From assembly GCA_047973305.1 (NCBI GenBank), contig JBKEBT010000150.1, forward strand, positions 1,548 to 65,547: a DNA stretch of 64,000 bases, written 5' to 3'. Below are positions 35,746 through 60,928 of the stretch, in pieces. The notes beneath the pieces were generated by a model. That model made no database searches. It had not been told where the DNA came from and saw only the letters and a list, made by a program, of their open reading frames with translations. The DNA is from Pyrinomonadaceae bacterium. GTDB taxonomy: Bacteria; Acidobacteriota; Blastocatellia; Pyrinomonadales; Pyrinomonadaceae. Position numbers and translations under genes: made by a program. The stretch's first letter is position 1. Every line of letters begins with the position of its first letter.

Positions 35746-36510
35746 CTATTTGGATAGATCTTTTGAGATTTTGTCAGCAGTTTTCACAACTAGATCAGTC
35801 ATTTCAGAAAACGTTTCTTTGGTAATTTGTTTTTTGTATCCAGCAACACTGATCGCGGCTACAACTCTGCCGGTTTGATCTGTTATTGGCGCACCAATAC
35901 AACGCGAGCCAATTGTTTCTTCTTCGTCGTCGAGCGCATAACCTTGAGTGCGCACAAGACGCAATTCGTCTTTTAGCTTTTTAGCTGAAACTATTGTGTT
36001 TTCATTATAGCGGGGAAGTCCGTATGTTAATATTCTATCAACAACTTCTTCTTCCCAATCACTCATAACCGCTTTGCCCACTGCAGTGCAGTGAATTCCC
36101 ATACGCATTCCAACCCAAGTTTTAACTTTTGGTGTGTATGGCGATTCAAGTTTTTCGATTATCACAACTTCGTTGCGTTCTTGCATCGCTAAATGAACGG
36201 TTAGATTGCACATTCGCAACAGAACCTTTAGGTGGGGCGACGCTATTTTGCGGATATTTAATCCACTCATTGCGCGATTTGCAAGCGTAAATATTTTCAT
36301 CCCGAACATATATCGTCCGGTTGCTTCGTTTCTATGCAAATAGCCAAGCCGTTCAAGGGTTAACAGTAATCCGAATGTTGAACTTTTTGGAAGCGAAAGG
36401 TTTCGGGTTAATTCTGAAAGGCTCAATCCGCTTTGCGATTTTGCAAGCTCTTCCATAATCAACATCGCTTTTTCGATTGCGGGAACCGATTTGGTTTTTG
36501 AATCTGACAT
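35746..36510 (-). CDS. IclR-family transcriptional regulator
   Basis: N-terminal winged HTH (AIEKAMLIMEELAKSQSGLSLSELTRNLSLPKSSTFGLLLTLERLGYL) and a C-terminal IclR effector domain. It is divergent from the rfaH-like gene. I chose the ATG at 36510; the track starts at a TTG at 36525. Confidence 0.85.
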   Translation of the reverse strand: MSDSKTKSVPAIEKAMLIMEELAKSQSGLSLSELTRNLSLPKSSTFGLLLTLERLGYLHRNEATGRYMFGMKIFTLANRAMSGLNIRKIASPHLKVLLRMCNLTVHLAMQERNEVVIIEKLESPYTPKVKTWVGMRMGIHCTAVGKAVMSDWEEEVVDRILTYGLPRYNENTIVSAKKLKDELRLVRTQGYALDDEEETIGSRCIGAPITDQTGRVVAAISVAGYKKQITKETFSEMTDLVVKTADKISKDLSK

Positions 36511-36618
36511 AATTAATCTAAACAACAGATTATTCTTGCTTTTGTTTAACAGTTTAAACTATTACCTGTCAATAGTCGCCAAAAATCTACCTAAGTACAA
36601 GACTAAACCAAATACGCA

Positions 36619-36652
36619 GTTCAGCCGGCTGAACAATAAAGAGCAATTGCTC
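36619..36652. promoter_or_regulatory. Two perfect palindromes in the IclR/rfaH-like divergent region (candidate operators)
   Basis: GTTCAGCCGGCTGAAC (36619..36634) is a 16-bp perfect palindrome and GAGCAATTGCTC (36641..36652) is a 12-bp perfect palindrome. A related GTTCAACGGGCTGAAC occurs at 43193..43208. Confidence 0.5.
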
Positions 36653-36724: not shown

Positions 36725-37234
36725 ATGGAAATTAATGCGGACTTGAATTGGTATGCTATTCGAACCAAATCGAATCAAGAACGAATAGCTGAGCTAAATT
36801 TGAATCGGATGGGCTTGGAAGTTTTTAACCCAGAGCTTAAATCAGAAAAAGAAGTTTTCGGCGTTACAAAAACCGTATTGAGTCCCTTATTCCCAAACTA
36901 CTTATTTGCAAAGTTCAACCCTTCAAAGTATCTACACTTAATTCAATATGCACGCGGAGTTCGGCAGGTATTGCGAACAGGAATAGCATTGTTGCCGGTT
37001 GAAGAACAGATTATAAAGGAAATTAGGCGTCGGCTTGTTTCCGGCGAATATGTTCAAGCTGAAAAACTATCAAGTGGCAGCTCTGTCGCAATAAAACAGG
37101 GCGCATTTAACGGGTTAAACGCAATCTTTGATCGCGAAACTAGCGATCGCAAACGGGTTGTGCTGCTGTTGGATATCATGGGTGTAAATGCAGAAGTAAT
37201 TCTGGATAAACGCGCGGTAAAAACCGCGGTCTAA
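36725..37234 (+). CDS. rfaH: RfaH-type specialised NusG paralog (NGN plus KOW)
   Basis: The 169-aa protein aligns by eye along its full length with E. coli RfaH as I recall it. Matching segments are NWYAIRTKSNQERIAELNLNR, SPLFPNYLFAKFNP (the RfaH signature, where NusG has FFPGYVLV), ARGVRQVLRTG, and the KOW segment VAIKQGAFNGLNAIFDRETSDRKRVVLLLDIMG. Confidence 0.75.
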   Translation: MEINADLNWYAIRTKSNQERIAELNLNRMGLEVFNPELKSEKEVFGVTKTVLSPLFPNYLFAKFNPSKYLHLIQYARGVRQVLRTGIALLPVEEQIIKEIRRRLVSGEYVQAEKLSSGSSVAIKQGAFNGLNAIFDRETSDRKRVVLLLDIMGVNAEVILDKRAVKTAV

Positions 37235-37268
37235 AAGTTCTCGCACAAAAATCAAAAGAGTTTTAATC

Positions 37269-37313
37269 GGAAAAGTTCGCCGAAATGGCGGTAGTCTGTC
37301 ATTCAATCGAATC
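37269..37313 (+). promoter_or_regulatory. ops-like element (GGCGGTAGTCTG, 37287..37298) inside a 45-nt conserved leader block, copy A
   Basis: The + strand reads GGAAAA-N6-CGAAATGGCGGTAGtctGTcATTcaatCGAATC. The core matches the ops consensus GGCGGTAGnnTG. The same block, with identical spacing, is at 43397..43441. Confidence 0.65.
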
Positions 37314-37413
37314 CAAAATTATTACGAACAAGTTTGTGCTTTCAGCTTGGTTTTAGTTCGTGCGTAAAATAAAATGAATTATCAAACTTCCATAAAATAT
37401 TCTACAAAAATAG

Positions 37414-38178
37414 ATGAAATTAAAAGATAAAGTTGCCATTGTTACCGGCGGCGGAACCGGAATCGGAAAAGGAATAAGCCGATGTTTGGCAAGTGCCGGC
37501 GCGAAAATTGTAATTGCACAGCCAACGCTCGAAAAAGCAAACGCAGCTGCCGAAGAATTTCGTAAAGAAGGGTTTGAAGTTTTGCCGATGAGCGTAGATA
37601 TAAGTTCGCGAAAAACGGTAAAAGCAATGGTTGCGGAAACGCTGGACAAATTCGGAAGAATCGACATTTTGGTAAACAACGGCGCCCTGACCGGATCAAA
37701 AGCAACCGCACCTTTTCTTGAAATTACTGACGAACTTTTGGATAGAACGGTTGATGTGAATCTCAAGGGAACGGTGATTGTTTCGCAAGAAGTAGCCCGC
37801 AACATGATTGAACACGGTGGTTCTATTATCAATATTTCATCAGTCGGCGCTTTCGCTGCTCAAGAAGGAGCATCAATTTACTGCGCAACAAAATCGGCAC
37901 TCTTGGGTTTAACGAAAACTATGGCATTGGAACTTGCACCGCAAAATATACGTGTAAATGCAATTGCGCCGGGAGACATATTAACTGAAACCAGCGAACG
38001 CATTGTTGAAGAGAAAATGGAAGATGGATATTCAAATAAGTATCTGCGCAAGATTCCGCTAGACCGACGCGGCAAACCTTCCGAAATCGGTAAAACCGCC
38101 GTGTTTTTAGCGTCTGACGATGCCTCTTACATCACGGGTGAAACAATTGTGGTTGATGGCGGTTTCTTGATTTATTGA
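37414..38178 (+). CDS. Short-chain dehydrogenase/reductase (SDR)
   Basis: Motifs TGGGTGIGKG, NNGA and the catalytic YCATKSA (YxxxK). Confidence 0.9.
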   Translation: MKLKDKVAIVTGGGTGIGKGISRCLASAGAKIVIAQPTLEKANAAAEEFRKEGFEVLPMSVDISSRKTVKAMVAETLDKFGRIDILVNNGALTGSKATAPFLEITDELLDRTVDVNLKGTVIVSQEVARNMIEHGGSIINISSVGAFAAQEGASIYCATKSALLGLTKTMALELAPQNIRVNAIAPGDILTETSERIVEEKMEDGYSNKYLRKIPLDRRGKPSEIGKTAVFLASDDASYITGETIVVDGGFLIY

Positions 38179-38400
38179 TTTTGAGCTGGGCGATGTTTTT
38201 CGCAACGCAAATGATTTCAACCATTAGTATTGAAACCGTGGATTAAAGATTTGAATGGGTTGGAAGACAATTGAGAGCCAAGCCGAACGATTAGTAACGA
38301 GAAACGCACGACGATATTTTCCCGAGGCGTTTTGAAAGTTTTGAACCAAATCATAAAAGTGGATGGAGGATAAACTGCAATAAAAGCAGCCTACAAAGTT

Positions 38401-39309
38401 ATGAAGTTGAAAGGAATGGTTCCGCCAATCGGAACACCGATAAATGAAGACGAAACTGTTGATGAAAATGGCTTACGCAAGCTTGTAAACTACTTAATAG
38501 ACGGCGGCGTCGATGGAGTTTTTGTCAATGGTTCAATGGGTTGTTCCGCGCTTTTGACTGATGCAGAACAGTTTCGCGCCATTGAAATTGTTGCGGATGA
38601 AGTAAACGGACGTGTTCCAGTAGTGGCAGGAATTTCAGATAGCAGCACGAAAAGGGTAATCGAAAAAACCAAAATTGTGGAACGCTTCAGGGTTGATTTC
38701 TTAACCGCGGTTGTGCCGTACTTTTTCAAATTAACACAACAGCAAGGAAAGCGATTTTTTCAGGAAGTTGCAGCCGCTGCGCAAAAGCCTGTCTTGATCT
38801 ACAACAACCCGTATTTAACTCCAATGGATTTTGAAGTTTCCACGTTACTAGAACTTTCTGAAGAACCTAATATAGTGGGCGTTAAAGATTCAAATCAAGA
38901 TTTCAACCGCTTAACAGGGTTGCTGGAAGCATTTCGTGGCAAAGATGAATTTACAATTATGCTCGGAACTGAACTCTTGATTCCGCAGGGCTTGATGATG
39001 GGTGCTGATGGTGCAATAGGCGGTGCGCACAACATTGCGCCGGCATTCGCTGCCGAGCTTTATAAGGCACATCTGGCTGGCGATTACGAAACGGCGTATG
39101 CGCGCAGCAACGACCTAGCGCAAATTTGCAAAATATTTCAGTATGGTTCAATTTGGGGAGGGTTTGAAGCGGCTTTGCAATTGCTGGGAATTTGCGAAAA
39201 GGTGGTTTTTGAGCCATACGCTTCTGCAAATGCCGACGAAAAACTGAAGGTTGAAGAGATTTTAAACGGTTGCGGTTTGCTGCAACAGCCTGTAGGTTCG
39301 CCAATTTAG
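38401..39309 (+). CDS. DapA/NanA-family class I aldolase (dihydrodipicolinate synthase family)
   Basis: Has the family pattern: GVFVNGSMGCSALL where GxxGE is expected, YNNP for the Tyr motif, and VGVKDS for the Schiff-base Lys. Confidence 0.8.
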   Translation: MKLKGMVPPIGTPINEDETVDENGLRKLVNYLIDGGVDGVFVNGSMGCSALLTDAEQFRAIEIVADEVNGRVPVVAGISDSSTKRVIEKTKIVERFRVDFLTAVVPYFFKLTQQQGKRFFQEVAAAAQKPVLIYNNPYLTPMDFEVSTLLELSEEPNIVGVKDSNQDFNRLTGLLEAFRGKDEFTIMLGTELLIPQGLMMGADGAIGGAHNIAPAFAAELYKAHLAGDYETAYARSNDLAQICKIFQYGSIWGGFEAALQLLGICEKVVFEPYASANADEKLKVEEILNGCGLLQQPVGSPI

Positions 39310-39313
39310 CTAA

Positions 39314-40066
39314 ATGAAAATCACTGATGAAATTTATTTGGTTGGAAGTTTGCAGCTTGGAATTTCGGGGCAATGGGATAGCCATGTTTACTTGATAAAG
39401 GGAACTGAGGGCTTGATATTGATTGATTCGGGCGGCGGAACTGATTGCGAAATGATATTCGATAATATTCGGCGTGAAGGGTTTGATCCGAATGAGATAA
39501 AATCAATTTTATTGACCCATTTCCATTTTGATCATTCATGTGGAGCCGCTGAAATCAGGGATAAAACCGGATGCGAAGTTTATATTTCTACCAAGTCAAG
39601 AGATTTGCTTGAAACCGGAACGGCAAAAGAAGCGGGACTTGAGCAGGCGATTGAACAAGGGGTTTACCCGGAGGGGTTTAAGTTTCGGAATTGCGTTGTA
39701 GATAAAGCATTGAATGACGGTGATGTGTTTGAAACAGCCGGGTTGAAATTTGAAACAATCGGCGTTGAAGGACATAGCGCGGATTCGATTTGTTATTTGG
39801 TTGAGCTAAATGGCAAGAAAAATTTATTTTCAGGCGACGTTCTTTTTTACGGCGGAATAATCGGCTTAATAAATGCACCGGGTTCCACTATGGATGGCTA
39901 TAGAAGGGATCTTAAAAAGCTTGCCAATTTGCATATTGAGGGACTTTTTCCGGGACATTTTTTGTTTACGATAAATGGCGGGCAGAAACATATAGATGCC
40001 GCGATTGAAATGTGTGAAAAAGGAGTGATTCCGCAAACCGTTGGGCAATACGGTGTAGTGTTTTAG
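39314..40066 (+). CDS. MBL-fold metallo-hydrolase
   Basis: HFHFDH metal-binding motif, followed downstream by GHSADS and a further His. Confidence 0.8.
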   Translation: MKITDEIYLVGSLQLGISGQWDSHVYLIKGTEGLILIDSGGGTDCEMIFDNIRREGFDPNEIKSILLTHFHFDHSCGAAEIRDKTGCEVYISTKSRDLLETGTAKEAGLEQAIEQGVYPEGFKFRNCVVDKALNDGDVFETAGLKFETIGVEGHSADSICYLVELNGKKNLFSGDVLFYGGIIGLINAPGSTMDGYRRDLKKLANLHIEGLFPGHFLFTINGGQKHIDAAIEMCEKGVIPQTVGQYGVVF

Positions 40067-40068
40067 AA

Positions 40069-41064
40069 ATGACTGTTTCAATTAAGGTTGACGAGTTCAG
40101 TTTTGAGCGAGTATCGGAAATCGGCAAACACCGATTGTTCTTGGAAATTGCTTCTGCCGGCGTTGGTGAACAAATCGGACTTCCCTTGTTGATTGCAAAT
40201 GGTGCTAGAACCGGTAAAACTCTCGTAGTTTTTGCGGGGGTTCACGGCGATGAACTGGAAGGCATTCAAGCGGTTCATGAGGTTTTTAATAGCCTTGACC
40301 CTGAAAGTTTGTGCGGAAGATTTATCGCCGTTCCGACCGCGAATCTTCCTGCAGTTCGGGCGATGCAGCGAAACAGTCCCATAGATTTATTGAATTTGGC
40401 GCGCGTATTTCCGGGCAACAAACACGGCAGTGTAACCGAGCGCATTGCCTTTTATCTTTCCACAATAATACTTCCGCAAGCCGATTTTTTTATCGATCTG
40501 CATAGTTCAGGGATAACTTCGTTGATGCCCCTAATGGTGGGTTACGATGCCGGTGAAACAATTGCGGGAACCGAATCAAAATCTGCGGCTTTGAAATTTG
40601 GAACGCCTGTAATGTGGGGACACGCTGAAATCGGACAAGGACGTTCGATAACTTCAGCCGGCGAACAGGGAATTCCGTGGCTTTATGTTGAATCACCAAG
40701 CGGGGGAAAAGTTTCTTCTGATTATTTGCCGTTTTACAGCAATGGTTTGTTCAACTTGCTAAAGCATCTGCATATTATTTCGGGTGAAATAGCCGAAAGC
40801 ACGCCTAAATACAGCCTGCTTGGCTCAGGTGATACGGATAGTGCACAAGTTGTAAACACTTACGGATTTTTTGTGTCGAAAGTAAAATTGCTTGATTTTG
40901 TTAAACGCGGAACGCTTATAGCTGAGGTTCGAAACGTTTACGGCGAAACGATTGAACAAGTTGTTGCCAAGAATGCGGGTTGCGTTTCAATGTTGCGAGC
41001 TGCGACGGTTGTTGAACCGGGCACGTTGGTCTGTTTGGTAGTTGAAGCAGAATTTGTAAATTAA
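40069..41064 (+). CDS. Succinylglutamate desuccinylase/aspartoacylase (AstE/AspA, M14-like) family deacylase
   Basis: GVHGDELEG zinc-binding motif, then DLHS later in the sequence. The 331-aa length is typical. Confidence 0.75.
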   Translation: MTVSIKVDEFSFERVSEIGKHRLFLEIASAGVGEQIGLPLLIANGARTGKTLVVFAGVHGDELEGIQAVHEVFNSLDPESLCGRFIAVPTANLPAVRAMQRNSPIDLLNLARVFPGNKHGSVTERIAFYLSTIILPQADFFIDLHSSGITSLMPLMVGYDAGETIAGTESKSAALKFGTPVMWGHAEIGQGRSITSAGEQGIPWLYVESPSGGKVSSDYLPFYSNGLFNLLKHLHIISGEIAESTPKYSLLGSGDTDSAQVVNTYGFFVSKVKLLDFVKRGTLIAEVRNVYGETIEQVVAKNAGCVSMLRAATVVEPGTLVCLVVEAEFVN

Positions 41065-41124
41065 CAAAGTTCATTCCAAATAAATCAAATAAAATTTAAG
41101 GTATTTAGTCTACCGGAGTAAAAA

Positions 41125-42594
41125 ATGGGTTTTTCAACTTTTGATTGGGTAGTAGTAGGAATCTATCTGTTGGCAAGCGTTTTGATTGGCGCATCATTTT
41201 TTAAGAAGCACGAAAACGCAAAAGATTATTTGCTGGCAGGTCGAAACATGCATTGGTTTCCGATAGCAATTTCGATTATTGCCACGGATTTAAGTGCGCT
41301 TTCTTATATCGGCGTTCCGGCATTGGTTTATAAAACCGACCTAAAATATATGATCACTGCAATCATGATGCCGTTGCAAATGCTTTTGGTTGTGGTTGTA
41401 TTTGTTCCACTTCTTTATCGGCTGAATATTTACACGGTTTATGGATATTTGGAACGCAGATTTAATAAGACTACAAGATTATATGCAGCTTTGTTGTTTA
41501 TGGGGGGGCGCGGCGCATGGCTTGCAACCATGATTTTTGCAACATCGGTTGTATTAACCGAAATTACGGGAATCGATACAGTTACAGCCATTATTATCTG
41601 CGGCTTGGCAACAACTGCCTACACATTCTTAGGAGGAATGGAAGCGGTTGTTTGGACTGATTTTATGCAGTTCTTTGTGTTGGTTGGCGGTGCAATAGCC
41701 ATATTGCTTTTTATACTTTACGGGTTTGGATGGGATTTTGGTCAAATTTGGACAATTGCATCGAACACCGGTCACACAAAATTTGTTGATTTTTCGTTTG
41801 ATTTTACCAAGGCGTTCACGTTTTGGGGGTTATTGTTTGGCTCTTTGATTTATCAGATTTCGACTTATGGAACCGATCAGCTCAATGTTCAGCGATATTT
41901 CGCGACCAAAGATTTGAAAAGCACTATCTGGGCAACGCTGGGTTCGGCAGTAATCTTGTTTCCGATTTTGATTTTGCTTTATGTTATCGGTCTTGGTTTG
42001 GTGGCATATTATCATTCGCATCCGGAGTTGCAAGCTACTTTGGGAAATCCGGACAGGGTAATGCCGCATTTTACATCCAATGTACTTCCAATGGGGCTTC
42101 GCGGTTTGGTTATTGCCGGAATCTTTGCGGCAACCATGTCCAGCATGTCTGCGGGAATAAACTCGTTGTCTACAAGCACAATGAAAGATTTGCTTGAACA
42201 AATCAGTCCAAAATTGATTAAGAACGAGTTGTTTTGGGCGCGCTCGTTGTGTTTGGGATGGGGAGTGCTTGTAACAATTATTGCGCTTGTGATGATCAGC
42301 GGACAACTTACGATTATTGAAAGATTTAATTCAATATACCAGCTTTTTGCGGGACCATTGGCGGGCATCTTCCTGTTGGGAATTCTTTCAAAAAGAACTT
42401 CGGCAGTTCCGGTGTTGCTCGGCTCGGTTGTTGGATTTGCAACGGCGATATATGTTCAGCAAACAACAAACATCCATTGGCTTTGGTTTGCTCCAATCGG
42501 TTTTGCGGTAACATATTTTATTGGGTACGTTGGAAGTTTCATAATTTCGAGTTCAAACTCTGCAGAACCTGAAGCCACTCAAAACGCTAGTTAG
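41125..42594 (+). CDS. Sodium:solute symporter (SSS) family transporter
   Basis: 489-aa protein with about 13 TM helices. The segments YLLAGRNMHWFPIAISIIATDLSALSYIG and GGMEAVVWTDFMQ are typical of SSS transporters. Confidence 0.85.
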   Translation: MGFSTFDWVVVGIYLLASVLIGASFFKKHENAKDYLLAGRNMHWFPIAISIIATDLSALSYIGVPALVYKTDLKYMITAIMMPLQMLLVVVVFVPLLYRLNIYTVYGYLERRFNKTTRLYAALLFMGGRGAWLATMIFATSVVLTEITGIDTVTAIIICGLATTAYTFLGGMEAVVWTDFMQFFVLVGGAIAILLFILYGFGWDFGQIWTIASNTGHTKFVDFSFDFTKAFTFWGLLFGSLIYQISTYGTDQLNVQRYFATKDLKSTIWATLGSAVILFPILILLYVIGLGLVAYYHSHPELQATLGNPDRVMPHFTSNVLPMGLRGLVIAGIFAATMSSMSAGINSLSTSTMKDLLEQISPKLIKNELFWARSLCLGWGVLVTIIALVMISGQLTIIERFNSIYQLFAGPLAGIFLLGILSKRTSAVPVLLGSVVGFATAIYVQQTTNIHWLWFAPIGFAVTYFIGYVGSFIISSSNSAEPEATQNAS

Positions 42595-42738
42595 GTAGGT
42601 GTTTTGCGGTTTTTTGTTCGAACAACAGCAAGAAGAGTGTTTTATTTGGTGGTAGTTGGATTTGTAAGTAAAAAACAGAACAGACAATTCCTTGGGCAAA
42701 AATACCGAATAGATTTCGGATTCTATTATTTGATTAAT

Positions 42739-43110
42739 ATGATTGAACATACAGTAGTTGGTGAACTGAAGCTTCCTTTTTCGCATGCGGTTCGCGTTGA
42801 TAATTTTGTATTCATTTCCGGACAGGCTTCGGTTGATTTATCAAGCGGTGAAATTATTTCAGGCACACTTGCTGAAGAAGTTGGGCAATCCATGCAAAAC
42901 TTACGAACGATTCTTGAGAACGCCGGTGCGCAGTGGGAAGATATTGTTAAAGTTGGATGTTTCGTACGCCGAAATGAAGATTTGGCTGAATTCAATGTGC
43001 TTTACCGTCAGTATTTCTGCGAGCCATTTCCGGCGCGTACAACCGTTACCAATTGTTTGCCACCCAGCTTGCTTTTTGAAATCGATTGCGTTGCGGTAAT
43101 TAAGAAATAA
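42739..43110 (+). CDS. RidA/YjgF/Endoribonuclease L-PSP family protein
   Basis: Motifs FVFISGQ, NLRTILENAGAQWEDIVKV and ARTTV..LP....EIDCVA. I placed the start at the ATG at 42739; the upstream part of ORF 42604 looks non-coding. Confidence 0.85.
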   Translation: MIEHTVVGELKLPFSHAVRVDNFVFISGQASVDLSSGEIISGTLAEEVGQSMQNLRTILENAGAQWEDIVKVGCFVRRNEDLAEFNVLYRQYFCEPFPARTTVTNCLPPSLLFEIDCVAVIKK

Positions 43111-43192
43111 GCGTGTCGATTTCGGCAATCCAACCGTTTGTCAGTCAACAAAAGCCTTTCTTCAGTTAAAGAACACAGTTTTTTACAGTTTG

Positions 43193-43208
43193 GTTCAACG
43201 GGCTGAAC
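43193..43208. promoter_or_regulatory. GTTCA-N6-TGAAC inverted repeat, second copy
   Basis: GTTCAACGGGCTGAAC followed by CAAAG. Compare GTTCAGCCGGCTGAAC followed by CAATAAAG at 36619. Confidence 0.45.
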
Positions 43209-43333
43209 AAAGTGCCGGAAAAGTACAAATTGGGTATTTTAATTGTTTAATAATTAACCTATTGTTACCGAGATAAAATCAAAAAGAAGTCGGAAGACTT
43301 AGAAATAGCAAATAAGATGATTCGAAGTTGTTT

Positions 43334-43412
43334 ATTTTCGAATCGAAAATCCTCCTTTAGAAAATGGGTTACCTTAATTCCAACCTATTCGATTTTGGAA
43401 AATAAAATCGAA
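43334..43412. promoter_or_regulatory. Two AT-rich TCGA-centred palindromes in the TonB-receptor leader
   Basis: ATTTTCGA-A-TCGAAAAT at 43334..43350 has 8-bp arms. TTCGATTTT-N7-AAAATCGAA at 43388..43412 has 9-bp arms and abuts the ops-like block. Confidence 0.4.
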
Positions 43413-43441
43413 ATGGCGGTAGCCCGTAATTATTCCGAATC
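43397..43441 (+). promoter_or_regulatory. ops-like element (GGCGGTAGCCCG, 43415..43426) inside the 45-nt conserved leader block, copy B
   Basis: GGAAAA-N6-CGAAATGGCGGTAGcccGTaATTattcCGAATC. It is identical to copy A at 32 of 45 positions, including a 14-nt perfect run. The ops core ends 112 nt before the receptor ATG; in copy A the distance is 116 nt. Confidence 0.6.
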
Positions 43442-43537
43442 ACCTACCTCAAATTGTAGATTGACTAAGCGCTTTTAAGAAATTTGCGCGAGTTGATTTT
43501 ATGTCGAGTTGTCAAAATAAAATAGGAGCGTTCAAAC

Positions 43538-46500
43538 ATGAAAAATGTATTTAGGCTGATCTTTTTTTCACTTTGTCTTATTGGCGTGCATACAGCATTT
43601 GGGCAAACTACCAATCAAGGAACGATTGTTGGAACAGTTAAAGACCAAATGGGCGATGCAATCCCTGCAGTGGTTGTATCAATCACAAACAATGAAACCG
43701 GTGCAGGCAGAACTGCCACAACAGATGAGCACGGAAACTATCGGGTTGATTTTTTGACACCCGGGGTATATCGAATATTGGCGGAGCTTTCAGGATTTAA
43801 GAAAGCCGAATTATCACAGATAACTGTGAATGTAAGCGATATTACCAGAGCCGATATTAAAATGGAGATTGGGCAAATTTCCGAACAAGTAACGGTTGAT
43901 AACGATACTGCGGGAATGGTAAATACAGAAAACGCCACATTTGGTGAAGTAATAAACGAGAACATCATTCAAAATATGCCGTTAAATGGAAGGGAATTTG
44001 TTGAGCTTTCAGGATTGGTTCCCGGGGTTTCCGATGGAAGCGGTAAAACGGGTTCAATTTCCAGCAAAGGCGTAGCGACCGCGGTAGGCGGTTCCCGTTC
44101 ATCATACAACTCATTTTATGTTGATGGGGCAGATTCAACCGATAACTATTTCGGGCAGTTGGTTTCATCACCGGCATTGGATGCAGTTAAGGAATTTCGC
44201 GTTGAAACTAGTTTGTATTCCGCACGCTTCGGACGCGCCGGCGGTGGCGTAATAAATGTAGTCACAAAGTCCGGCACAAATGATTTTCATGGTTCACTCT
44301 ACGAATTTCATCGAAGCGAAGATTTTGATGCAATGCCGTATTTCTATACCGGTCCAAAAGAAGATAGACCCACGTACCTGCAAAATCAATATGGCGGCAC
44401 TATAGGCGGTCCGGTTTACCTTCCAACTTTGGGTTTTGGCGGAAAGAAATATTACAGTGGCAAAAACAGAACATTTTTCTTTTTTAGCACGGAGTTTTAT
44501 CGTCAAAAGAAGCCCGGACAGTTCATTGAAGGTATTGCGCCTACGGCGTTGGAACGCGTAGGAAATTTCACGGAAACTATCAATCCGTACACGAATGCGC
44601 CCGTTACACTCGTTTATCCAAATGTTTACAAAGTTACATCAACGTGTCCCGATCCAACGCAACCACCGGTAACTTCGGGCACTCCTTCAGCCGGACAGCA
44701 CTGTCAGCAGATGCCGATTACCAACAAAATTTTACCGGCAAACTTAATCAATCCTTTGGGTCAGAAGTTGATGGATTTAATTCCGGAACCGAATTATGAT
44801 GATCCGATATTCAACCTACGAGTCTTTAAGAGCGGCAGACATACAGCTGACAAATATCTCATAAAACTCGACCACAATTTCAAAGACGGCAGCAATCTAA
44901 ACGGAAGCTACAATTACGGAATTTACGACAATACGAACCCGGGGATAACTGATTTTGCCGCAACCAATTCATACGATTACGGAAAAACTTTGGCAATTGG
45001 CTTTACCAAGCCGATAAATCGAAATTTGGTTTCGGACACAAAGTTTAATTATACGTGGAGCGACAGCGGACTAAGACAATTGGCTTCGGACAAAAACTAC
45101 GCTGAAGAATATGGTTTTTGGGTTGGAGGACAAAAGCCCGATATAAACGGATTTCCAAGAGTACAACTCTACACCGTTGGAAACAGGTATATGACATTGG
45201 GCTCATCAGGTCCTAACATGCGAAGCAACAAAACAATGTATGTACGCGAAGACCTGATCTATATCAAAGGCAACCACACAATTTCATTGGGTGCCGATTT
45301 TAAGGCGCAGGATTATGGCTGGATTTACGATGTTGCAATGTTTGGCGCGTATTACATTGGAATTCTTGAAAATGGAGTTACATCCGGAAACCTTTACTAC
45401 AGAGTTACGGGGCATACATTTGGAAACTTGCTAACAGGAATTTCTTCTTATTCATCTTATAGTTACGGCGATTCCAGATATGCTAGATCGCAGCGCAACA
45501 GCATTGGTACATACTTGCAGGATGATTGGAAAGTTTCAGACCGTTTAACGATGAACTTGGGGCTCAGATACGATTTTGAACCGCCTTTCAGTAGCAAAGA
45601 TGGCAAGTTTATGACGCTTAATTGGGAAAATGGCATGCCGCTTTATTCCAAACAAACCAATTCTTCATTGCTGCAAGATTTAAAATTTAATTATCAAACG
45701 GGTGGTCCAAAAACTCCGTTTGATGCAAACAAACTAAATTTTGCTCCACGAGTTGGCTTCGCACTCAACATTTTTAATGACAATTCAACTGTGCTTCGCG
45801 GCGGATTCGGGCTGGTTTACAATAGCGAAAGCTTTTACACCACGGGTTACGGATCGTTCGTTGCGCCGTTCGGCGGTACTTTTATTTGGAGAACGCGTGC
45901 AGCGTTGCAGCCCGATTTGGTAAATCACTTGATTCCGATGGATCAAGAACCGTATCAGCTGCCGCTTACTGAGCCAACTTCTCCGGGCAGCACTTGGGTA
46001 AACCCCAGATACTATCCGACAGGATATGTTCAGAATTGGAATCTCGGCATATCGCGAGAAATAGGCTGGGGAGTTGTTGCTGAAACATCTTATGTTGGTT
46101 CGAAGGGAACCAACCTAAACGGACTTGGTTCATTGAGAAGTTACGATCCTGCACTATTGGCAAAAGCCAAAGAAAATAACCCCGAATGGGTTACAACCGG
46201 CGGAAGTAACGTAGTAAGCCTTAGATTAAAGGGTTTTAATTCTAGTTATCATTCTTTACAGGCAAAGCTCAGGAAACGGTTCCGAAATGGAATAAGCTTT
46301 TTAGGTGCGTATACATGGTCACATACAATGGCTGAAGCATCTAACGATCTTGTAGATGAAAATCTTGATTCGTTGGATACAGAAACGCAAACCTATGTGT
46401 ATAAACGAATAGATACAAATGCCGATTTCGATATCCGCCACCGCTTTACCTTTTCCGGCACATACGATTTACCGTTTGGTAAGGGGCAGCATTTTGGATC

Positions 46501-46957
46501 TGATTGGAATTCATTTGTAAATACATTGTTTGGAAACTGGCGTCTAAATATGATTACCAAAATGCAATCGGGTCAGCCGTTCAGCGTTCGTGGTACAAAT
46601 GGTCGCCCGCCGAACAGACTCTGTGACGGAAACCTTCCGGCAAGCGAAAGAACCGTTGAAAGATGGTTTGATACAAGTTGTTTTGTTGATTCGGCTTCAA
46701 GCACCATAAACGGTAATGCATCGCCAAACATCATTTGGGGACCAAATTTGATTGCATTCGATTTTGGTCTTCATAAAGAACTAAAGTTTGGTGATAATGT
46801 TAAATTGCAGCTTCGCGGTGAAGCCTTTAACGCTTTTAACAGAGTTAACCTAATAGGACCAAGTCTTAATTACTTTGTTAATGCGGATTCAGGCGCAACG
46901 CTTACTCGGCAGCGTGACAACAGAAGTCTTCAATTTGGTTTAAGACTTATTTTTTAA
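43538..46957 (+). CDS. TonB-dependent receptor with N-terminal carboxypeptidase-regulatory-like domain
   Basis: Signal peptide, then GTIVGTVKDQMGDAIPAVVVSITNNETG (CarboxypepD_reg-like), a plug region, a 1139-aa beta-barrel and a C-terminal aromatic residue (LRLIF). An AGGAG Shine-Dalgarno lies 8 nt upstream. Confidence 0.88.
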   Translation: MKNVFRLIFFSLCLIGVHTAFGQTTNQGTIVGTVKDQMGDAIPAVVVSITNNETGAGRTATTDEHGNYRVDFLTPGVYRILAELSGFKKAELSQITVNVSDITRADIKMEIGQISEQVTVDNDTAGMVNTENATFGEVINENIIQNMPLNGREFVELSGLVPGVSDGSGKTGSISSKGVATAVGGSRSSYNSFYVDGADSTDNYFGQLVSSPALDAVKEFRVETSLYSARFGRAGGGVINVVTKSGTNDFHGSLYEFHRSEDFDAMPYFYTGPKEDRPTYLQNQYGGTIGGPVYLPTLGFGGKKYYSGKNRTFFFFSTEFYRQKKPGQFIEGIAPTALERVGNFTETINPYTNAPVTLVYPNVYKVTSTCPDPTQPPVTSGTPSAGQHCQQMPITNKILPANLINPLGQKLMDLIPEPNYDDPIFNLRVFKSGRHTADKYLIKLDHNFKDGSNLNGSYNYGIYDNTNPGITDFAATNSYDYGKTLAIGFTKPINRNLVSDTKFNYTWSDSGLRQLASDKNYAEEYGFWVGGQKPDINGFPRVQLYTVGNRYMTLGSSGPNMRSNKTMYVREDLIYIKGNHTISLGADFKAQDYGWIYDVAMFGAYYIGILENGVTSGNLYYRVTGHTFGNLLTGISSYSSYSYGDSRYARSQRNSIGTYLQDDWKVSDRLTMNLGLRYDFEPPFSSKDGKFMTLNWENGMPLYSKQTNSSLLQDLKFNYQTGGPKTPFDANKLNFAPRVGFALNIFNDNSTVLRGGFGLVYNSESFYTTGYGSFVAPFGGTFIWRTRAALQPDLVNHLIPMDQEPYQLPLTEPTSPGSTWVNPRYYPTGYVQNWNLGISREIGWGVVAETSYVGSKGTNLNGLGSLRSYDPALLAKAKENNPEWVTTGGSNVVSLRLKGFNSSYHSLQAKLRKRFRNGISFLGAYTWSHTMAEASNDLVDENLDSLDTETQTYVYKRIDTNADFDIRHRFTFSGTYDLPFGKGQHFGSDWNSFVNTLFGNWRLNMITKMQSGQPFSVRGTNGRPPNRLCDGNLPASERTVERWFDTSCFVDSASSTINGNASPNIIWGPNLIAFDFGLHKELKFGDNVKLQLRGEAFNAFNRVNLIGPSLNYFVNADSGATLTRQRDNRSLQFGLRLIF

Positions 46958-46972
46958 ACTCAATTGAATAAC

Positions 46973-46993
46973 AAGCGAAGCTTTTTCGCTTTT
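46973..46993 (+). terminator. Hairpin with T-tract directly after the TonB receptor gene
   Basis: Stem AAGCGAA / TTCGCTT, 5-nt loop, then TT. A second, longer hairpin lies at 47023..47061: AAAGGATTTC / GAAATCCTTT followed by TT. Confidence 0.55.
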
Positions 46994-47129
46994 CAAACTG
47001 TAGCCGACGCCGCCACTTCGAGAAAGGATTTCAAACGGAAAGAAAGCCGGAAATCCTTTTTCGCAAGGCGGTTTCAGTTGCTTAAACTTGATTTCGAAAA
47101 CATATCCAAATTAGTAAGCAAGTTTCAAA

Positions 47130-48665
47130 ATGAAAAAATTCATCGCCGGACTTTTCTTTTTCATCTGCTTTGTTCTTCCAAGTTTTGGACAGTCTGCTGT
47201 CAAAATCGGTTCCGAACTTCAGTTATTTACAGACAAGTACTTAATAGAAGATATGAGTGGCGAAATTGATTTGCGTCTGCATCATCCAACCCCACGGGAA
47301 GTAGTGTTGGTTCATGATGCGCCTTGGGAAGGCAACGGTTCTGGCTATCACAGCATTTTTAAGGATGGAGATAAATACAAGCTTTACTATAAAGCATGGC
47401 GAGTTTCTCAACCAAAAGGCGCAAAGAAGGAGAATACTTCATATTTAGCTTATGCCGAAAGCAAGGACGGCATCAATTGGATTAAGCCAAATCTAGGAAT
47501 TTACGAAATTAACGGCACAAGAAACAACAACGTTGTGTTGATTAGTGAAAAAGTAGGCAATTTTAATGTAACCGCCGGTTTGCCCGGTGTTTTTAAAGAT
47601 GAAAACCCGAACGCGCCCGCTGATGAACGCTACAAAGCGCTAATTGTTTCTTCTGCGCATGGAACGGATTATCACGGTTTGTTGGCATATAAATCCGCAG
47701 ACGGCATACATTGGGAAATGATGTCGAACAAACTCATTATTACGGATGATGCATTTGATAATCAAAACGTAGCCTTTTGGGATCCCCGCACAAAACAGTA
47801 TCGCGCATATTGGCGTTCTTGGTCAGAAAGTGACAAAAAATCACTTTACAAGGGAATTCGCGGCATTAAAACAGCTACAAGCAAAGATTTTATTACTTGG
47901 GAAAACAAACAATTACTTAGCTACGAAAATTCGCCCGAAGAACATCTTTATACAAATCCGATTGAACCTTATTATCGCGCGCCACAGCTATATATTGGCT
48001 TTCCTGCAAGATATATCGAACGTGCGTGGGGAACTTCTTTGCGGGCATTGCCGGAAGGTGATGAGCGCAAGGCGCGTTCTGAGCGTGTGATGCGGTATGG
48101 AACCGCAATTACTGATTCGCTCTTTATGACAAGTAGGGATGGAGTCAGGTTTTATCGTTGGAATGAAGCTTTTCTTACCCCCGGAATTGAACGCGACGGA
48201 AGTTGGACGTACGGTGACAATTATCTGGCTTGGGGTATGGTTGAAACAAAATCGGAATATGCGGGCGCACCCAATGAACTGTCGCTTTACGCAACCGAAG
48301 GTTATTGGAAGAACAATGGAAGCAAACTTCGTAGGTTCACTATAAGAATCGATGGATTTGTTTCGGTAAAGGGATCGGCAAACGGCGGCGAACTGTTGAT
48401 AAAAAATTTAGTCTTTAGCGGCAATTCATTGAACTTGAACTTTTCATCATCTGCGGCTGGCGAATTGCGGGTTGAAATACTTGATTCTGATGGCAAAACA
48501 ATTCCAAACTTTTCGCTCGATGACTGTGATGTTATTTTTGGTGATTCTTTAAACCGAAAAGTTAGTTGGAACGGAAATTCTGATGTGTCGTCATTGGAAG
48601 GCAAAACCATTAAACTGAGATTTAAGTTAAAGGATGCCGATTTGTATTCATTTCAGTTCCGTTGA
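47130..48665 (+). CDS. Secreted beta-propeller protein with Asp-box-like repeats (glycoside-hydrolase-like)
   Basis: Signal peptide MKKFIAGLFFFICFVLPSFGQ. Repeats ESKDGINW, KSADGIHW, TSKDFITW and TSRDGVRFYRW. The C-terminal beta-sandwich looks like a carbohydrate-binding module. Confidence 0.5.
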   Translation: MKKFIAGLFFFICFVLPSFGQSAVKIGSELQLFTDKYLIEDMSGEIDLRLHHPTPREVVLVHDAPWEGNGSGYHSIFKDGDKYKLYYKAWRVSQPKGAKKENTSYLAYAESKDGINWIKPNLGIYEINGTRNNNVVLISEKVGNFNVTAGLPGVFKDENPNAPADERYKALIVSSAHGTDYHGLLAYKSADGIHWEMMSNKLIITDDAFDNQNVAFWDPRTKQYRAYWRSWSESDKKSLYKGIRGIKTATSKDFITWENKQLLSYENSPEEHLYTNPIEPYYRAPQLYIGFPARYIERAWGTSLRALPEGDERKARSERVMRYGTAITDSLFMTSRDGVRFYRWNEAFLTPGIERDGSWTYGDNYLAWGMVETKSEYAGAPNELSLYATEGYWKNNGSKLRRFTIRIDGFVSVKGSANGGELLIKNLVFSGNSLNLNFSSSAAGELRVEILDSDGKTIPNFSLDDCDVIFGDSLNRKVSWNGNSDVSSLEGKTIKLRFKLKDADLYSFQFR

Positions 48666-48740
48666 TTGCGATATAAACTGCGATTCACGATTTTTAAGAA
48701 GGTTCAACAGAATTTAAGCTATTTATAGGAGCAAATTAGA

Positions 48741-50615
48741 GTGCATTTTTTCGTTCGTTGGTTCAAAACACATTCCTTTAAATCGTTACCCTTCTTTGTT
48801 TTATTCATTTCGTTTACAGTCAGCGCTTCGGCACAAAATTATCTGTATGAATCAGACAGATGGGAAAAATCCGGCGAAGCAATAATAATTTCCGATATGT
48901 CGCAGGTTGAACCAAGAAATGCTCTAACGTTTGATCTTAGGCGAAAAAGACATTGGAAGGTTTTGGATTATGAAACCAAAGACGGTTTAAAAGGCAACAG
49001 CATTGCGAGCTTGCCGGATACGGGCGCGCCGGCGGTTACGCTCAAACTGAACAAAACCGGTTGGTTTGCGGTTTATGTAGGTCTTGGCGGCGCCGGCAGA
49101 TTTGGATACGGACAAACCAGCGAAGCGCGCAAAAAATTGACAAACGATGTTGCATATCAACATCGCAGATACAGCGGCGCAAGCGATGATATTGATGAGG
49201 TTTTCTTTAAAAATGCCGATCTAACAGGACAAGATTTGGAGTTTGCACAGATGAGAATGAAGGCGAGAATGAACGTCGATATTCCCGCCGTAAACCCGCG
49301 TCATACCGTAATAATGTACGTTAAACTTGTTCCTTTAACTCCAAAAGAAGTTGCATTCATAAAAACCGAAAGCGAACGTACAGATACAAAAAATTTGATT
49401 GGTACAATGGATGGGTTTAGTTGGCTTAATAAAAACTATCCAACCACCAAAGAAGAGTTTTTAGAAAATTTTGAGCATTTTAGGGATTCAGATTTCGGAA
49501 CTCTTTCGTGGCAGATTATTGGCGGCGATTTGGTCAATTACGATTCTAAATTGGGAACAATAATTGGCGATTTATCAGATGATCCACCGCGTTCCGGAGA
49601 TATTGACGTTACAAGGGCGGTTAAGAAGTTTATAGAAGATGGAGCAGATGAAACAAAGCTGGCAGTTGAAGCGGCTCATTCAATGAACAAGAAAATCAGC
49701 ATTGGCTTTAGAACTCAAGCGTGGCAGGCACCGCCGGCTTTTGAAGATTATTTCAGCTCCAGATTTTATCGCGAAAATCCGCAATTTAGAACCTATGACC
49801 GCGATGGAACGCCTGTTATGAGAATGAGCTATGCGGTTCCGGAAGTTAGAGAGCATATTTACGGAATCTTTAAGGAAATTCTGAATTACCAGCCCGATGG
49901 ACTTGAAATAATATATTTTCGGGGTTTGCCATTAATGCTTTGGGAAGATGCCTTTAGCAACCGATTCAAAGAGAAATACGGAGCCGATGCAAAACAAATT
50001 CCCGAAGACGACCCGCGACTTTCTGAACTCCGCTGCGAAATCATGACCGATTTTATGCGTAAAACACGCAAATTGCTCGATGATGTGCAAAAGGCACAAG
50101 GAAGAGAAAAGCGTTACGAGCTTTCCGTTTCCGTTGTACACACCGAAGAAGACAATAAGAAATATGGGTTGGATGTTGAGCAATGGGTGAAAGAAGGCTT
50201 AATCGATAAAATCTCAATTTTTCCGGCGGCTTTTCATACCAACACCAGAAAACCCGTGGATTTCAAGTGGTTTGCGAAAATAACAAAGGGAACAAAAATC
50301 GGGTTTTACCCTATAATGATTGGTGCGGGCATGGCTAGTTATGAAGACCTGATTAAGAATGCGCAAAAGAATTACGCTGCGGGTGCGGCAGGAATGATGT
50401 TTTGGGATCCGGACCCGATAAATCAATATAAAAAGCCCGATTCGCACTATTTTAATCGTCCCGTAAATACTTATTGGTCATTGGTTTCGCGAATCGGGCA
50501 CAAAGACGATTTGAGTATTTTTGAAGCAGAAAACAGACCCAGTGCGAAATATATTCCGTTAAAGAAATGGGGAAATCATTATTTTGGGCGTTGGATTCCG
50601 GATGTTGGATTTTAG
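48741..50615 (+). CDS. Secreted hypothetical protein (possible TIM-barrel glycosidase-like)
   Basis: GTG start with an AGGAG 9 nt upstream, and a signal peptide ending SASAQ. The protein is 624 aa and I did not firmly recognise a family. Confidence 0.45.
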   Translation: MHFFVRWFKTHSFKSLPFFVLFISFTVSASAQNYLYESDRWEKSGEAIIISDMSQVEPRNALTFDLRRKRHWKVLDYETKDGLKGNSIASLPDTGAPAVTLKLNKTGWFAVYVGLGGAGRFGYGQTSEARKKLTNDVAYQHRRYSGASDDIDEVFFKNADLTGQDLEFAQMRMKARMNVDIPAVNPRHTVIMYVKLVPLTPKEVAFIKTESERTDTKNLIGTMDGFSWLNKNYPTTKEEFLENFEHFRDSDFGTLSWQIIGGDLVNYDSKLGTIIGDLSDDPPRSGDIDVTRAVKKFIEDGADETKLAVEAAHSMNKKISIGFRTQAWQAPPAFEDYFSSRFYRENPQFRTYDRDGTPVMRMSYAVPEVREHIYGIFKEILNYQPDGLEIIYFRGLPLMLWEDAFSNRFKEKYGADAKQIPEDDPRLSELRCEIMTDFMRKTRKLLDDVQKAQGREKRYELSVSVVHTEEDNKKYGLDVEQWVKEGLIDKISIFPAAFHTNTRKPVDFKWFAKITKGTKIGFYPIMIGAGMASYEDLIKNAQKNYAAGAAGMMFWDPDPINQYKKPDSHYFNRPVNTYWSLVSRIGHKDDLSIFEAENRPSAKYIPLKKWGNHYFGRWIPDVGF

Positions 50616-50650
50616 CCGTTGCAAACTTTTTCGAAGTTTATAGTTTTTAG

Positions 50651-53455: not shown

Positions 53456-53513
53456 TGTTATAAGCGTCGTTTTGGCGATAGGTTTGATGCAGAAGCGAAA
53501 ATCGAATTTTATT

Positions 53514-54617: not shown

Positions 54618-54806
54618 TGTGAATTTTTATCCTGTGATTTTGTTGTTAAGGCTTCCTGTAATACGTTAAGAAATTATACGTGCAGCCTAAGATTTTGCAT
54701 GAAACCCGTTGTGTTTCTTAATTTACTTTAAGCCGCTTGATGAGCCTTAAGTATTCACAAATAGAGATTCTATTTTCAGAAAGCGAATTAAAGAAGAAGT
54801 ATATTG

Positions 54807-55940: not shown

Positions 55941-55945
55941 AAAAA

Positions 55946-57019: not shown

Positions 57020-57020
57020 T

Positions 57021-58478: not shown

Positions 58479-58591
58479 TTAGTTCGGCAAAATAAGTTGT
58501 TTTATTTAATGAAGTTGAGAAACCGGTGCGGAATCGGTGCGCTTTTAAATCGAAGTCAATTATAAACCAAAATCATAAGGAGTAAATTAAA

Positions 58592-59938: not shown

Positions 59939-59973
59939 TTTGCTGATTCGGCAAGCTATACCTATTTAATGAT

Positions 59974-60904: not shown

Positions 60905-60928
60905 CGGCGTCTATCGCCGTTTTTTTTT
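60905..60928. terminator. Short GC hairpin with T9 tract, bidirectional between convergent genes
   Basis: AAAAAAG-CGGCG-TCTAT-CGCCG-TTTTTTTTT. Confidence 0.6.

Follow-up and report, generated by a model that had tools for sequence, protein, structure and literature searches.

A hairpin and ops-like core in two operon leaders of a Pyrinomonadaceae catabolic locus, a probable loading site for an RfaH-like NusG paralog

Until the work on UpxY of Bacteroides, RfaH was the sole specialised NusG paralog whose recruitment was understood, and the question raised by the locus described here is whether an RfaH-like factor is also loaded at ops-like sites in a distant phylum, on operons for uptake and catabolism. 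The locus lies within a stretch of 64,000 nucleotides (nt; hereafter the window) from a metagenome-assembled genome (MAG) of a soil Pyrinomonadaceae bacterium of the Acidobacteriota (assembly GCA_047973305.1, contig JBKEBT010000150.1, positions 1,548 to 65,547). A plus-strand gene at 36725-37234 encodes an RfaH-like specialised NusG paralog of 169 amino acids, and ops-like cores are found in the leaders of two operons, one immediately behind this gene and the other before the gene of a TonB-dependent outer-membrane transporter. Comparison across genomes suggests that the segment 43388-43427 of the second leader, which comprises a hairpin and a core of the GGCGGTAG type, is probably a loading site for this paralog.

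The initial annotation had drawn attention to two 45-nt blocks, 37269-37313 (GGAAAAGTTCGCCGAAATGGCGGTAGTCTGTCATTCAATCGAATC) and 43397-43441 (GGAAAATAAAATCGAAATGGCGGTAGCCCGTAATTATTCCGAATC), and the pair is real: the blocks are identical at 32 of 45 positions without gaps, including a 14-nt run, CGAAATGGCGGTAG, that starts at 37281 and 43409. As had been seen by eye, GGCGGTAG occurs exactly twice in the window, at 37287 and 43415, in both cases on the plus strand, which is the coding strand, and in both cases between genes. Core 1, GGCGGTAGTCTG plus T (37287-37299), has T at position 11 and fits GGCGGTAGnnTG fully; core 2, GGCGGTAGCCCG plus T (43415-43427), carries C11 G12, as had been noted, and not the T11 G12 of Escherichia coli ops, and it holds the E. 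coli-type hairpin-forming GCGGTAGC at 43416-43423 on the coding strand of the leader. The distances originally given were also reproduced, with 116 nt from the end of core 1 (37298) to the ATG at 37414 and 112 nt from the end of core 2 (43426) to the ATG at 43538.

The shared 14-mer alone does not go beyond chance, with about 25 other exact direct 14-mer pairs in the window, and at least two copies of GGCGGTAG also appeared in 17 of 100 shuffles of it. The 14-mer test, non-significant by itself, was replaced by an intergenic 45-mer test and by comparative tests. Among 24 intergenic segments (6.3 kb), the two copies form the best 45-nt pair, their 32 identities exceeding anything seen in 40 shuffles (mean 28.2, maximum 31). 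One-mismatch variants of GGCGGTAG were found at 37 places in the window, 31 of them inside genes, and none of the six intergenic ones has the CGAAAT context. On the 3' side of the core the copies agree at 10 of 15 positions (nominal P about 0.004 by a rough binomial estimate), which could reflect recent copying between the two leaders or chance. As we read these sequences, the decisive evidence beyond chance is that from other genomes rather than the statistics of the window.

A scan of one genome per species with an alignment of the paralog protein returned 80 loci, chosen by the protein alone and spanning Acidobacteriota, Nitrospirota, Nitrospinota, Verrucomicrobiota, delta-proteobacterial lineages and others. 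Densities of GGCGG[T/C]AGNN[T/C]G on the plus strand were computed for 79 of them. The 350 nt after the paralog gene contained 24 matches (0.87 per kb) and the 350 nt before it 8 matches (0.30 per kb), compared with 18 matches (0.008 per kb) in the rest of these loci, so that the core is enriched about 100-fold over background after the paralog gene; 24 loci have the core 65-263 nt 3' of the gene and 8 loci immediately 5' of it. The background of 0.008 per kb is about the chance level for G+C-rich DNA, by a hand estimate from base composition, and the core does not behave as the dispersed repeat that the initial annotation had considered as a contrary outcome. A 19-nt sequence, CCGAAATGGCGGTAGTCTG, a stretch of the CCGAAATGGCGGTAGSCTG type about 75 nt after the paralog stop codon, is identical in copy 1 and in loci L002 and L007 of other genomes, whose paralogs are 64-66% identical to that of the window, and the exact E. 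coli ops, GGCGGTAGCGTG, is found in L038 and L069. Information across 37 sites is concentrated between about -5 and +13, counted from G1, and is nil beyond, and G5-T6-A7-G8 is invariant or varies only between T and C. The C11 of copy 2 is a natural variant that also adjoins paralog genes in L025, L039 and L071. Genes for polysaccharide biosynthesis or export lie 3' of the sites in six of the seven Nitrospirota loci inspected (L025, L029, L040, L041, L042 and L055; ABC-2 permease, Polysacc_synt_2, asparagine synthase and FemAB-like genes), with a FAD-dependent oxidoreductase gene instead in L035. These targets are of the classical class, unlike those of the Acidobacteriota, where the sites precede catabolic genes (enolase-superfamily, SDR, TonB transporter). 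A further GGCGGTAGCGGA occurs at 6617-6628 of L002 (also at 7989 of L003), in a 740-nt gap before a reading frame of 154 amino acids, about 2.5 kb before the paralog gene and outside the CGAAAT context; it may be a third site or a chance occurrence.

In a common variant, position 6 of the core is C (GGCGGCAG; L016 and L017 at 10591, L022 at 10705, L024 at 4204, L036 at 1386, L044 at 10635, and others). In E. coli, the base at this position is flipped out and read by RfaH, the G5-T6 loop being required for recognition (PMC11001881), and substitutions at H20, R23 and H65 of RfaH weaken the ops-dependent delay (PMC2871177). When T6 or C6 was compared with about 170 protein columns, by statistics that ignore phylogeny, the columns of RfaH H65, H20, R23 and Q24 ranked 1, 4, 5 and 7, and the R23 column held Arg in 15 of 18 T-sites compared with 4 of 13 C-sites. 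This covariation is a hint that the paralogs may read the base directly.

The protein itself points in the same direction. The product of 36725-37234 belongs to Pfam NusG (1.5e-14), its score is highest with the RfaH model TIGR01955 (115.1 bits, compared with 76.6 for UpxY, 46.3 for LoaP and 37.8 for NusG), and the closest solved structure is E. coli RfaH (3e-14). The UpxY (NF033644) and LoaP (NF033641) scores fall short of their cutoffs of 100 and 125 bits. RfaH residues K10 (here K15), R23 (R28), R73 (R77), I93 and F130 are retained; the DNA-binding cluster of RfaH consists of K10, R16, H20, T72 and R73 (PMC2871177). An AlphaFold2 model built from a seven-sequence alignment gave a confident N-terminal domain and, for residues 108-169, mixed secondary structure with a predicted local distance difference test (pLDDT) below 50. 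The link between an ops-like element and an RfaH-like protein made in the initial annotation was thus borne out, with RfaH as the best family for the paralog and the core about 100 times more frequent than background near paralog genes. A stem-loop, CGCGG-TAAAAA-CCGCG, lies at 37210-37230, at the end of the paralog reading frame before the stop codon, and has a weak, chance-level Rfam match.

Copy 2 was then followed into orthologous TonB-receptor leaders (58-74% protein identity), of which a metagenome scan for TonB orthologs provided one locus, L094, and exact-protein look-ups the others. In the orthologous loci operon 1 again ends about 310-435 nt before the TonB gene, which is followed by sulfatase, esterase or sialidase genes, and the synteny of operon 2 is kept in L008-L013 and L095-L098. 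A full core is present in L008 and L009 (GGCGGTAGCTTG in both), in L096 and in each of two leaders of L098 (GGCGGTAGCCTG), in L094 (GGCGGTAGCCTA, with the full GGCGGTAG and A at position 12) and, as the full GGCGGTAG, in the leader of L014. All six loci have kept T11, and their TonB proteins are 58-73% identical. The core is partial in L095 (GCGGTAGC only) and L012 (GGACGGTAG) and absent from L097. In the multiple alignment, it is one of five conserved islands in leaders that average 51% column identity; conservation in orthologous leaders, which the initial annotation had proposed to look for, was therefore found for the core in most leaders, and was not found for the remaining leader or the outer parts of the 45-nt block. 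L014 has the IclR gene, the divergent paralog, ops and, directly behind, a TonB ortholog (58% identical), an arrangement that ties the TonB operon to the paralog. Furthermore, the paralog locus L017 and the ops-bearing TonB leaders of L098 are separate contigs of one MAG, which makes action in trans plausible. Tandem TonB-receptor/sulfatase units of L098 have identical leaders of about 250 nt with hairpin and ops (9566-10003 and 16667-17215), the result of a recent duplication. L096 has a further operator-promoter-ops module at 17145-17407, before an SDR-SDR-DHDPS operon downstream of the TonB unit, and relatives carry up to three such units with differing operon order.

Directly 5' of the core stands a hairpin. 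That of copy 2 (43388-43412, plus strand) pairs TTCGATTTTG with TAAAATCGAA in 10 pairs, one of them G-U, around a 5-nt loop, and ends 2 nt before the core; the segment 43384-43427 folds at -12.7 kcal/mol (z = -2.4). That of copy 1 (37267-37283, plus strand) is weak, with TCGG, a 9-nt loop and CCGA; it ends 3 nt before the core, has a stem of only four pairs, and has an alternative fold that draws on bases of the core when the latter is included. When the 50 nt upstream of each of the 37 sites were folded, the 3' arm of a hairpin ended 1-5 nt before G1 in 33 of them, and at exactly 3 nt in 22. The corresponding values were 37% in shuffled sequence and at random positions and 7-17 of 37 in windows shifted by 5-40 nt, and with the 3' arm fixed the mean contiguous stem was 5.19, against 3.88 ± 0.17 after shuffling of the 5' region. 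The stems differ between lineages (TTCGATTTTG/TAAAATCGAA, TCGG/CCGA, TCGGAGCG/CGCTCCGA, CCGGT/ACCGG, ACGGTG/CACCGT and CCGGC/GCCGG), and hence it is the structure of the hairpin that is conserved and not its sequence. These shuffle tests took the place of a covariance model, for which a MAFFT alignment was dropped because variable loop lengths put the 5' arms out of register. Pairing of an upstream ACCG with the CGGT of the core was rejected, as the change from T6 to C is not compensated upstream (by eye). An inverted repeat, GATTCGAA-N10-TTCGAATC, in the predicted 5' untranslated region (UTR) of the TonB operon (43319-43344, upstream of the hairpin and ops) is unconserved in orthologous leaders.

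These comparisons redraw the limits of the element. Of the 45-nt block only the core survives as a conserved unit, with information confined to about -5 to +13 from G1: GGAAAA, GT-N-ATT and CGAATC, which had been listed as block elements, are unconserved in orthologs, CGAATC being a widespread hexamer (57 occurrences in the window for 51 expected) and GGAAAA the apex of hairpin 2 (one closing G-U pair plus the loop). The conserved unit is smaller and structured, a hairpin with a variable stem, about 3 nt, and then GGCGGTAGYYTG-T. The block had also been called JUMPStart-like, which describes the architecture well, since JUMPstart is itself a hairpin plus ops (in the Rfam consensus, a 5-bp hairpin, 1 nt, then GGCGGUAGCGUG); the outer parts of the block do not belong to the conserved element. 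Rfam gave no relevant family on the window copies at gathering or permissive thresholds, whereas the E. coli waaQ leader used as a positive control scored 55.2 bits with JUMPstart (cutoff 35); the relative L038 reached 19.7 bits. The element resembles JUMPstart in layout and core and is not a member of the Rfam family.

Both leaders share a second module further upstream. The palindromes GTTCAGCCGGCTGAAC (36619-36634) and GTTCAACGGGCTGAAC (43193-43208) are candidate operators of the form GTTCA-N6-TGAAC, each followed after 28 nt by a predicted plus-strand sigma-70-like promoter with a 17-nt spacer, P1 (36663-36691, -35 TTTCAT, -10 TATACT) and P2 (43237-43265, -35 TTTTAA, -10 TATTGT). Within the window the palindrome has two intergenic occurrences, at 36619 and 43193, and it recurs in 18 fetched loci, in IclR/paralog gaps and in TonB leaders. 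In the gap between the paralog gene and the IclR-family gene it is present in the window, L001-L007 and L015-L017 (imperfect in L014, ATTCA...TGAAC), and in TonB leaders it is present in the window, L008-L013 and L094-L097, with imperfect copies only in L098. The window and most relatives show the palindrome, exactly 28 nt, a TTTACA-like hexamer, 17 nt and TAnnnT, and the P2 pattern is kept in L008, L009, L012, L094, L095 and L097. A consensus promoter scanner returned no canonical promoter there, and the promoter calls are based on the conserved pattern and spacing. In six TonB leaders ops lies 125-149 nt after the predicted -10 (149 nt for core 2), so that the core would fall within a long 5' UTR, at a distance from the promoter that varies little. 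The palindrome is probably the site of the divergent IclR-family regulator. An operator that would act on initiation and an ops that would act on elongation, both shared, suggest that the two units form one regulon. The initial annotation had put the TonB operon in the same regulon as operon 1, and that assignment gains from the identically spaced operator-promoter module of both units and from L014, in which the TonB ortholog follows the paralog gene and ops.

We propose the following sequence of events. Transcription of the TonB operon would start from P2, 28 nt downstream of GTTCA-N6-TGAAC, probably bound by the IclR-family protein, and about 140 nt into the 5' UTR the polymerase would transcribe the hairpin and then the core. 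It would pause near position 11, as at E. coli ops, where the pause is at U11 (PMC11001881); G1...C11 G12 still conforms to the elemental pause rule, which calls for G at -10, a pyrimidine at -1 and G at +1. The non-template strand may then expose the small GCGGTAGC hairpin with G5 and T6 looped out, which in E. coli pairs C3:G8 and G4:A7 (PMC6391919), and the N-terminal domain of the paralog would bind it, while the hairpin in the nascent RNA may lengthen the pause. Once on the polymerase, the paralog would displace housekeeping NusG and shield the 17.3-kb operon from Rho and pausing. The same paralog would load at 37267-37299, right after its own gene, for operon 1 (5.7 kb).

Several observations weigh against this proposal. 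The paralog, at 115.1 bits, remains below the NCBIfam RfaH cutoff of 144.5, and RfaH residues R16 (I), H20 (N), T72 (A), E48 (S) and Q24 are not conserved in it; the pLDDT below 50 means that AlphaFold2 does not call the fold state of its C-terminal domain. The covariation with base 6 ignores phylogeny, and in one MAG the site beside the paralog has C6 and those of the TonB leaders have T6. Copy 2 is without T11, where the pause occurs in E. coli, and the core is degenerate in L012 and L095 and missing in L097, three of nine orthologous leaders, so the motif is not indispensable. The hairpin ends about 13-14 nt from the expected 3' end of the RNA. Classical pause hairpins sit 10-12 nt from it. 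Rfam JUMPstart (RF01707) gave no match at E ≤ 10 on 37200-37420 or 43260-43540. With respect to downstream effects, a strong AGGAG ribosome-binding site is conserved before the TonB gene, so that ribosome recruitment of the RfaH type would not be needed there, and intrinsic-terminator-like sites are not in excess inside operon 2. Intrinsic terminators were considered as targets of anti-termination and discarded, as none lies between operons 1 and 2 and operon 2 shows no excess.

Among other explanations, it is unlikely, although deserving attention, that the element acts as RNA, with the hairpin and a single-stranded GGCGGUAGYYUG tail of the nascent transcript recognised by the paralog through its KOW domain, in the manner proposed for LoaP, or by a different RNA-binding protein, or serving as a processing or small-RNA site in the way that the E. 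coli waaQ leader yields RirA. Both arms of the hairpin change between lineages, which argues for a folded single strand, and Rfam treats JUMPstart as an RNA motif, over which the E. coli record annotates the small RNA rirA. However, the core is identical to the non-template DNA hairpin GCGGTAGC of E. coli (PMC11685472), the residues that covary with base 6 belong to the N-terminal DNA-binding patch and not to KOW, LoaP is a poor match (46 bits, cutoff 125), and no Rfam family matches. We give rather little credence to a factor-independent pause or attenuation signal, for example one timing translation or Rho, with the co-occurrence of the paralog due to shared ancestry of the leader. Ops-like sequences alone do pause diverse polymerases (PMC7593976), and such a signal would accommodate C11 in copy 2 and the degenerate cores of some orthologous leaders; it would not account for the 100-fold association with the paralog gene, nor for G5-T6-A7-G8, which is dispensable for pausing and needed for RfaH recognition (PMC6391919, PMC11001881), being invariant or T/C over the 37 sites.

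That the element is a protein-binding operator or promoter element (an IclR site, or a sigma-54 or extracytoplasmic function (ECF) promoter) and not an elongation signal is very improbable. It is intergenic and beside a regulator gene, and TGGC...TTG superficially resembles sigma-54 sites, but the core is asymmetric and strand-specific and occurs across phyla, including loci where the IclR gene seen here is missing; a different conserved palindrome and a -35/-10 pair are located upstream of it, and a hairpin with both arms changing together is unexpected for a promoter. The sigma-54 reading of TGGC...TTG was dismissed on inspection by eye, the GG-N10-GC spacing being unmet and positions 14-15 being TA. 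These three possible accounts fit the data less well than loading of the paralog at hairpin and ops. As for mere chance similarity of the leaders, the roughly 25 exact 14-mer recurrences in the window and the 17% of shuffles with two copies of GGCGGTAG would allow for it, but the copies are the best intergenic 45-mer pair, above all shuffles, and the core is kept in orthologous leaders and linked to the paralog family-wide, which leaves it scarcely credible.

The closest known system is E. coli RfaH with ops in JUMPstart. The likeness extends to the core (GGCGGTAGnnTG), to the identical hairpin-forming GCGGTAGC, which all eight E. coli ops sites share (PMC11685472), to the position on the non-template strand of a long 5' UTR before a long operon with a hairpin directly 5' of ops, to one factor being common to several unlinked leaders, and to the factor itself, here an RfaH-like NusG paralog with K10, R23, R73, I93 and F130. 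The differences are that the RfaH system belongs to Proteobacteria and this one to a Pyrinomonadaceae MAG; that the factor scores under the RfaH cutoff and has not kept H20, Q24 and E48; that its gene lies in cis, immediately before the first ops; that an IclR-type operator accompanies each unit; and that the target genes, which have strong ribosome-binding sites, serve uptake and catabolism and not envelope, toxin or conjugation functions. With respect to JUMPstart, whose leaders belong to polysaccharide and envelope operons of Gammaproteobacteria, the spacer is about 3 nt instead of 1 and stem and loop sequences are unrelated, and for these reasons the Rfam model has no match here.

UpxY and opsX of Bacteroides (PMC11685472) likewise combine a pause hairpin of the nascent RNA with a small non-template DNA hairpin having GCG..AGC stems, and their factor is encoded in the locus under its control. 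There, however, opsX precedes upxY, the first gene of the operon, and the UpxZ inhibitor follows, whereas here ops mostly follows the paralog gene (24 downstream, 8 upstream), and in the window copy 1 follows that gene and copy 2 is 6 kb away. The Bacteroides DNA hairpin, YGCGNAGCR, has a one-base loop instead of the two-base GT loop of E. coli seen here, the targets are capsule biosynthesis genes, and the UpxY model gives the window paralog only 77 bits (cutoff 100). PrfaH of IncX plasmids (PMC11880322) is reported to be an RfaH-like factor beside its own ops-like site that acts on the adjacent long operon; it is enterobacterial, with a conjugation operon as target and a single site. LoaP of Bacillota (PMC12691694) is also a specialised NusG paralog, whose gene adjoins its target and whose recruitment has been linked to a hairpin in the leader, but it is a proposed reader of an RNA hairpin, with no ops core and with polyketide targets, and the window paralog scores 46 bits against its cutoff of 125.

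On balance, the element appears to belong to the RfaH/ops kind, as a variant that serves a TonB-dependent catabolic locus of the Acidobacteriota. As of 2019, recruitment information was available for no specialised NusG paralog but RfaH (PMC6391919), and for RfaH it came from E. coli only (PMC7593976, PMC6391919), Bacteroides opsX being added in 2024 (PMC11685472). Recognition of ops is considered late in RfaH evolution, RfaH is about 95% proteobacterial, and its targets are genes for envelope, secretion, toxin, conjugation and antibiotic synthesis (PMC7593976). Our literature search, of incomplete coverage, turned up neither a description of ops accompanying RfaH-like paralogs in Acidobacteriota or Nitrospirota nor one of an RfaH-like factor on a TonB-dependent catabolic locus. 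The same core and a JUMPstart-like hairpin stand beside RfaH-like genes in several distant phyla, and here they mark two operons for uptake and catabolism.

A broader proposition, which we regard as evenly poised between right and wrong, is that JUMPstart-type recruitment by hairpin plus ops, far from having arisen late and only in enterobacteria, is an old cross-phylum module. It would have moved together with one clade of RfaH-like paralogs, present in Acidobacteriota, Nitrospirota, Nitrospinota, Verrucomicrobiota and others, standing before polysaccharide genes in Nitrospirota and co-opted, together with an IclR-type operator, in Blastocatellia-type Acidobacteriota for a multi-operon regulon of TonB-dependent harvest and breakdown of an acidic glycan. 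If so, this would be, to our knowledge, the first specialised NusG paralog dedicated to nutrient acquisition, and T6/C6 together with the covarying H20/R23/H65 residues would represent a natural specificity code. The narrower reading, loading of the paralog at the sites of this locus, would if confirmed already carry a mechanism of enterobacterial virulence and envelope genes over to a catabolic locus in a distant phylum, and such factors would have a role outside envelope, toxin, conjugation and antibiotic synthesis. It would also supply natural variants of ops, each with its cognate protein, for work on specificity, and a sequence tag, a hairpin plus GGCGGYAGYYTG, with which to predict regulons in uncultured Acidobacteriota and Nitrospirota.

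Divergent from the paralog gene, an IclR-family regulator (Pfam HTH_IclR and IclR_C) is encoded on the minus strand (35746-36525), and this divergent pair is kept in L002, L003, L004, L007 and L014-L017. Operon 1 (37414-43110, plus strand) has six genes, for an SDR protein, a DHDPS-family lyase, a protein of metallo-beta-lactamase fold, an AstE/AspA-type deacylase, a Na+/solute symporter and RidA. It is separated from operon 2 by a gap of 427 nt (43111-43537) that contains copy 2. Operon 2 (43538-60876, plus strand; 10 genes in 17.3 kb) starts with the TonB-dependent outer-membrane transporter, followed by two proteins of no confident family, the second with a weak GHL10 match, and by an FG-GAP protein; its distal part encodes a GxDLY/SGNH esterase, a BNR sialidase-family protein, a pyridoxal phosphate (PLP) enzyme, an MlrC/M81 protein, a class III aminotransferase and an FAA hydrolase. 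No NCBIfam model for a specific substrate was matched at cutoff among the proteins of the locus, and for this reason the locus is assigned no more precisely than to the uptake and catabolism of an acidic glycan of sialic-acid-like type. Internal direct repeats at 51149-52524 (28-50 nt, 75-79% identical, 339-999 nt apart, every pair by a multiple of about 333 nt) correspond to FG-GAP repeat units of a protein of 934 amino acids. Finally, a G+C-rich hairpin flanked by an A-run and a T-run (60905-60919) lies between the stop codon of operon 2 at 60876 and a convergent minus-strand gene (61013-62467), and is likely a bidirectional terminator that closes operon 2.

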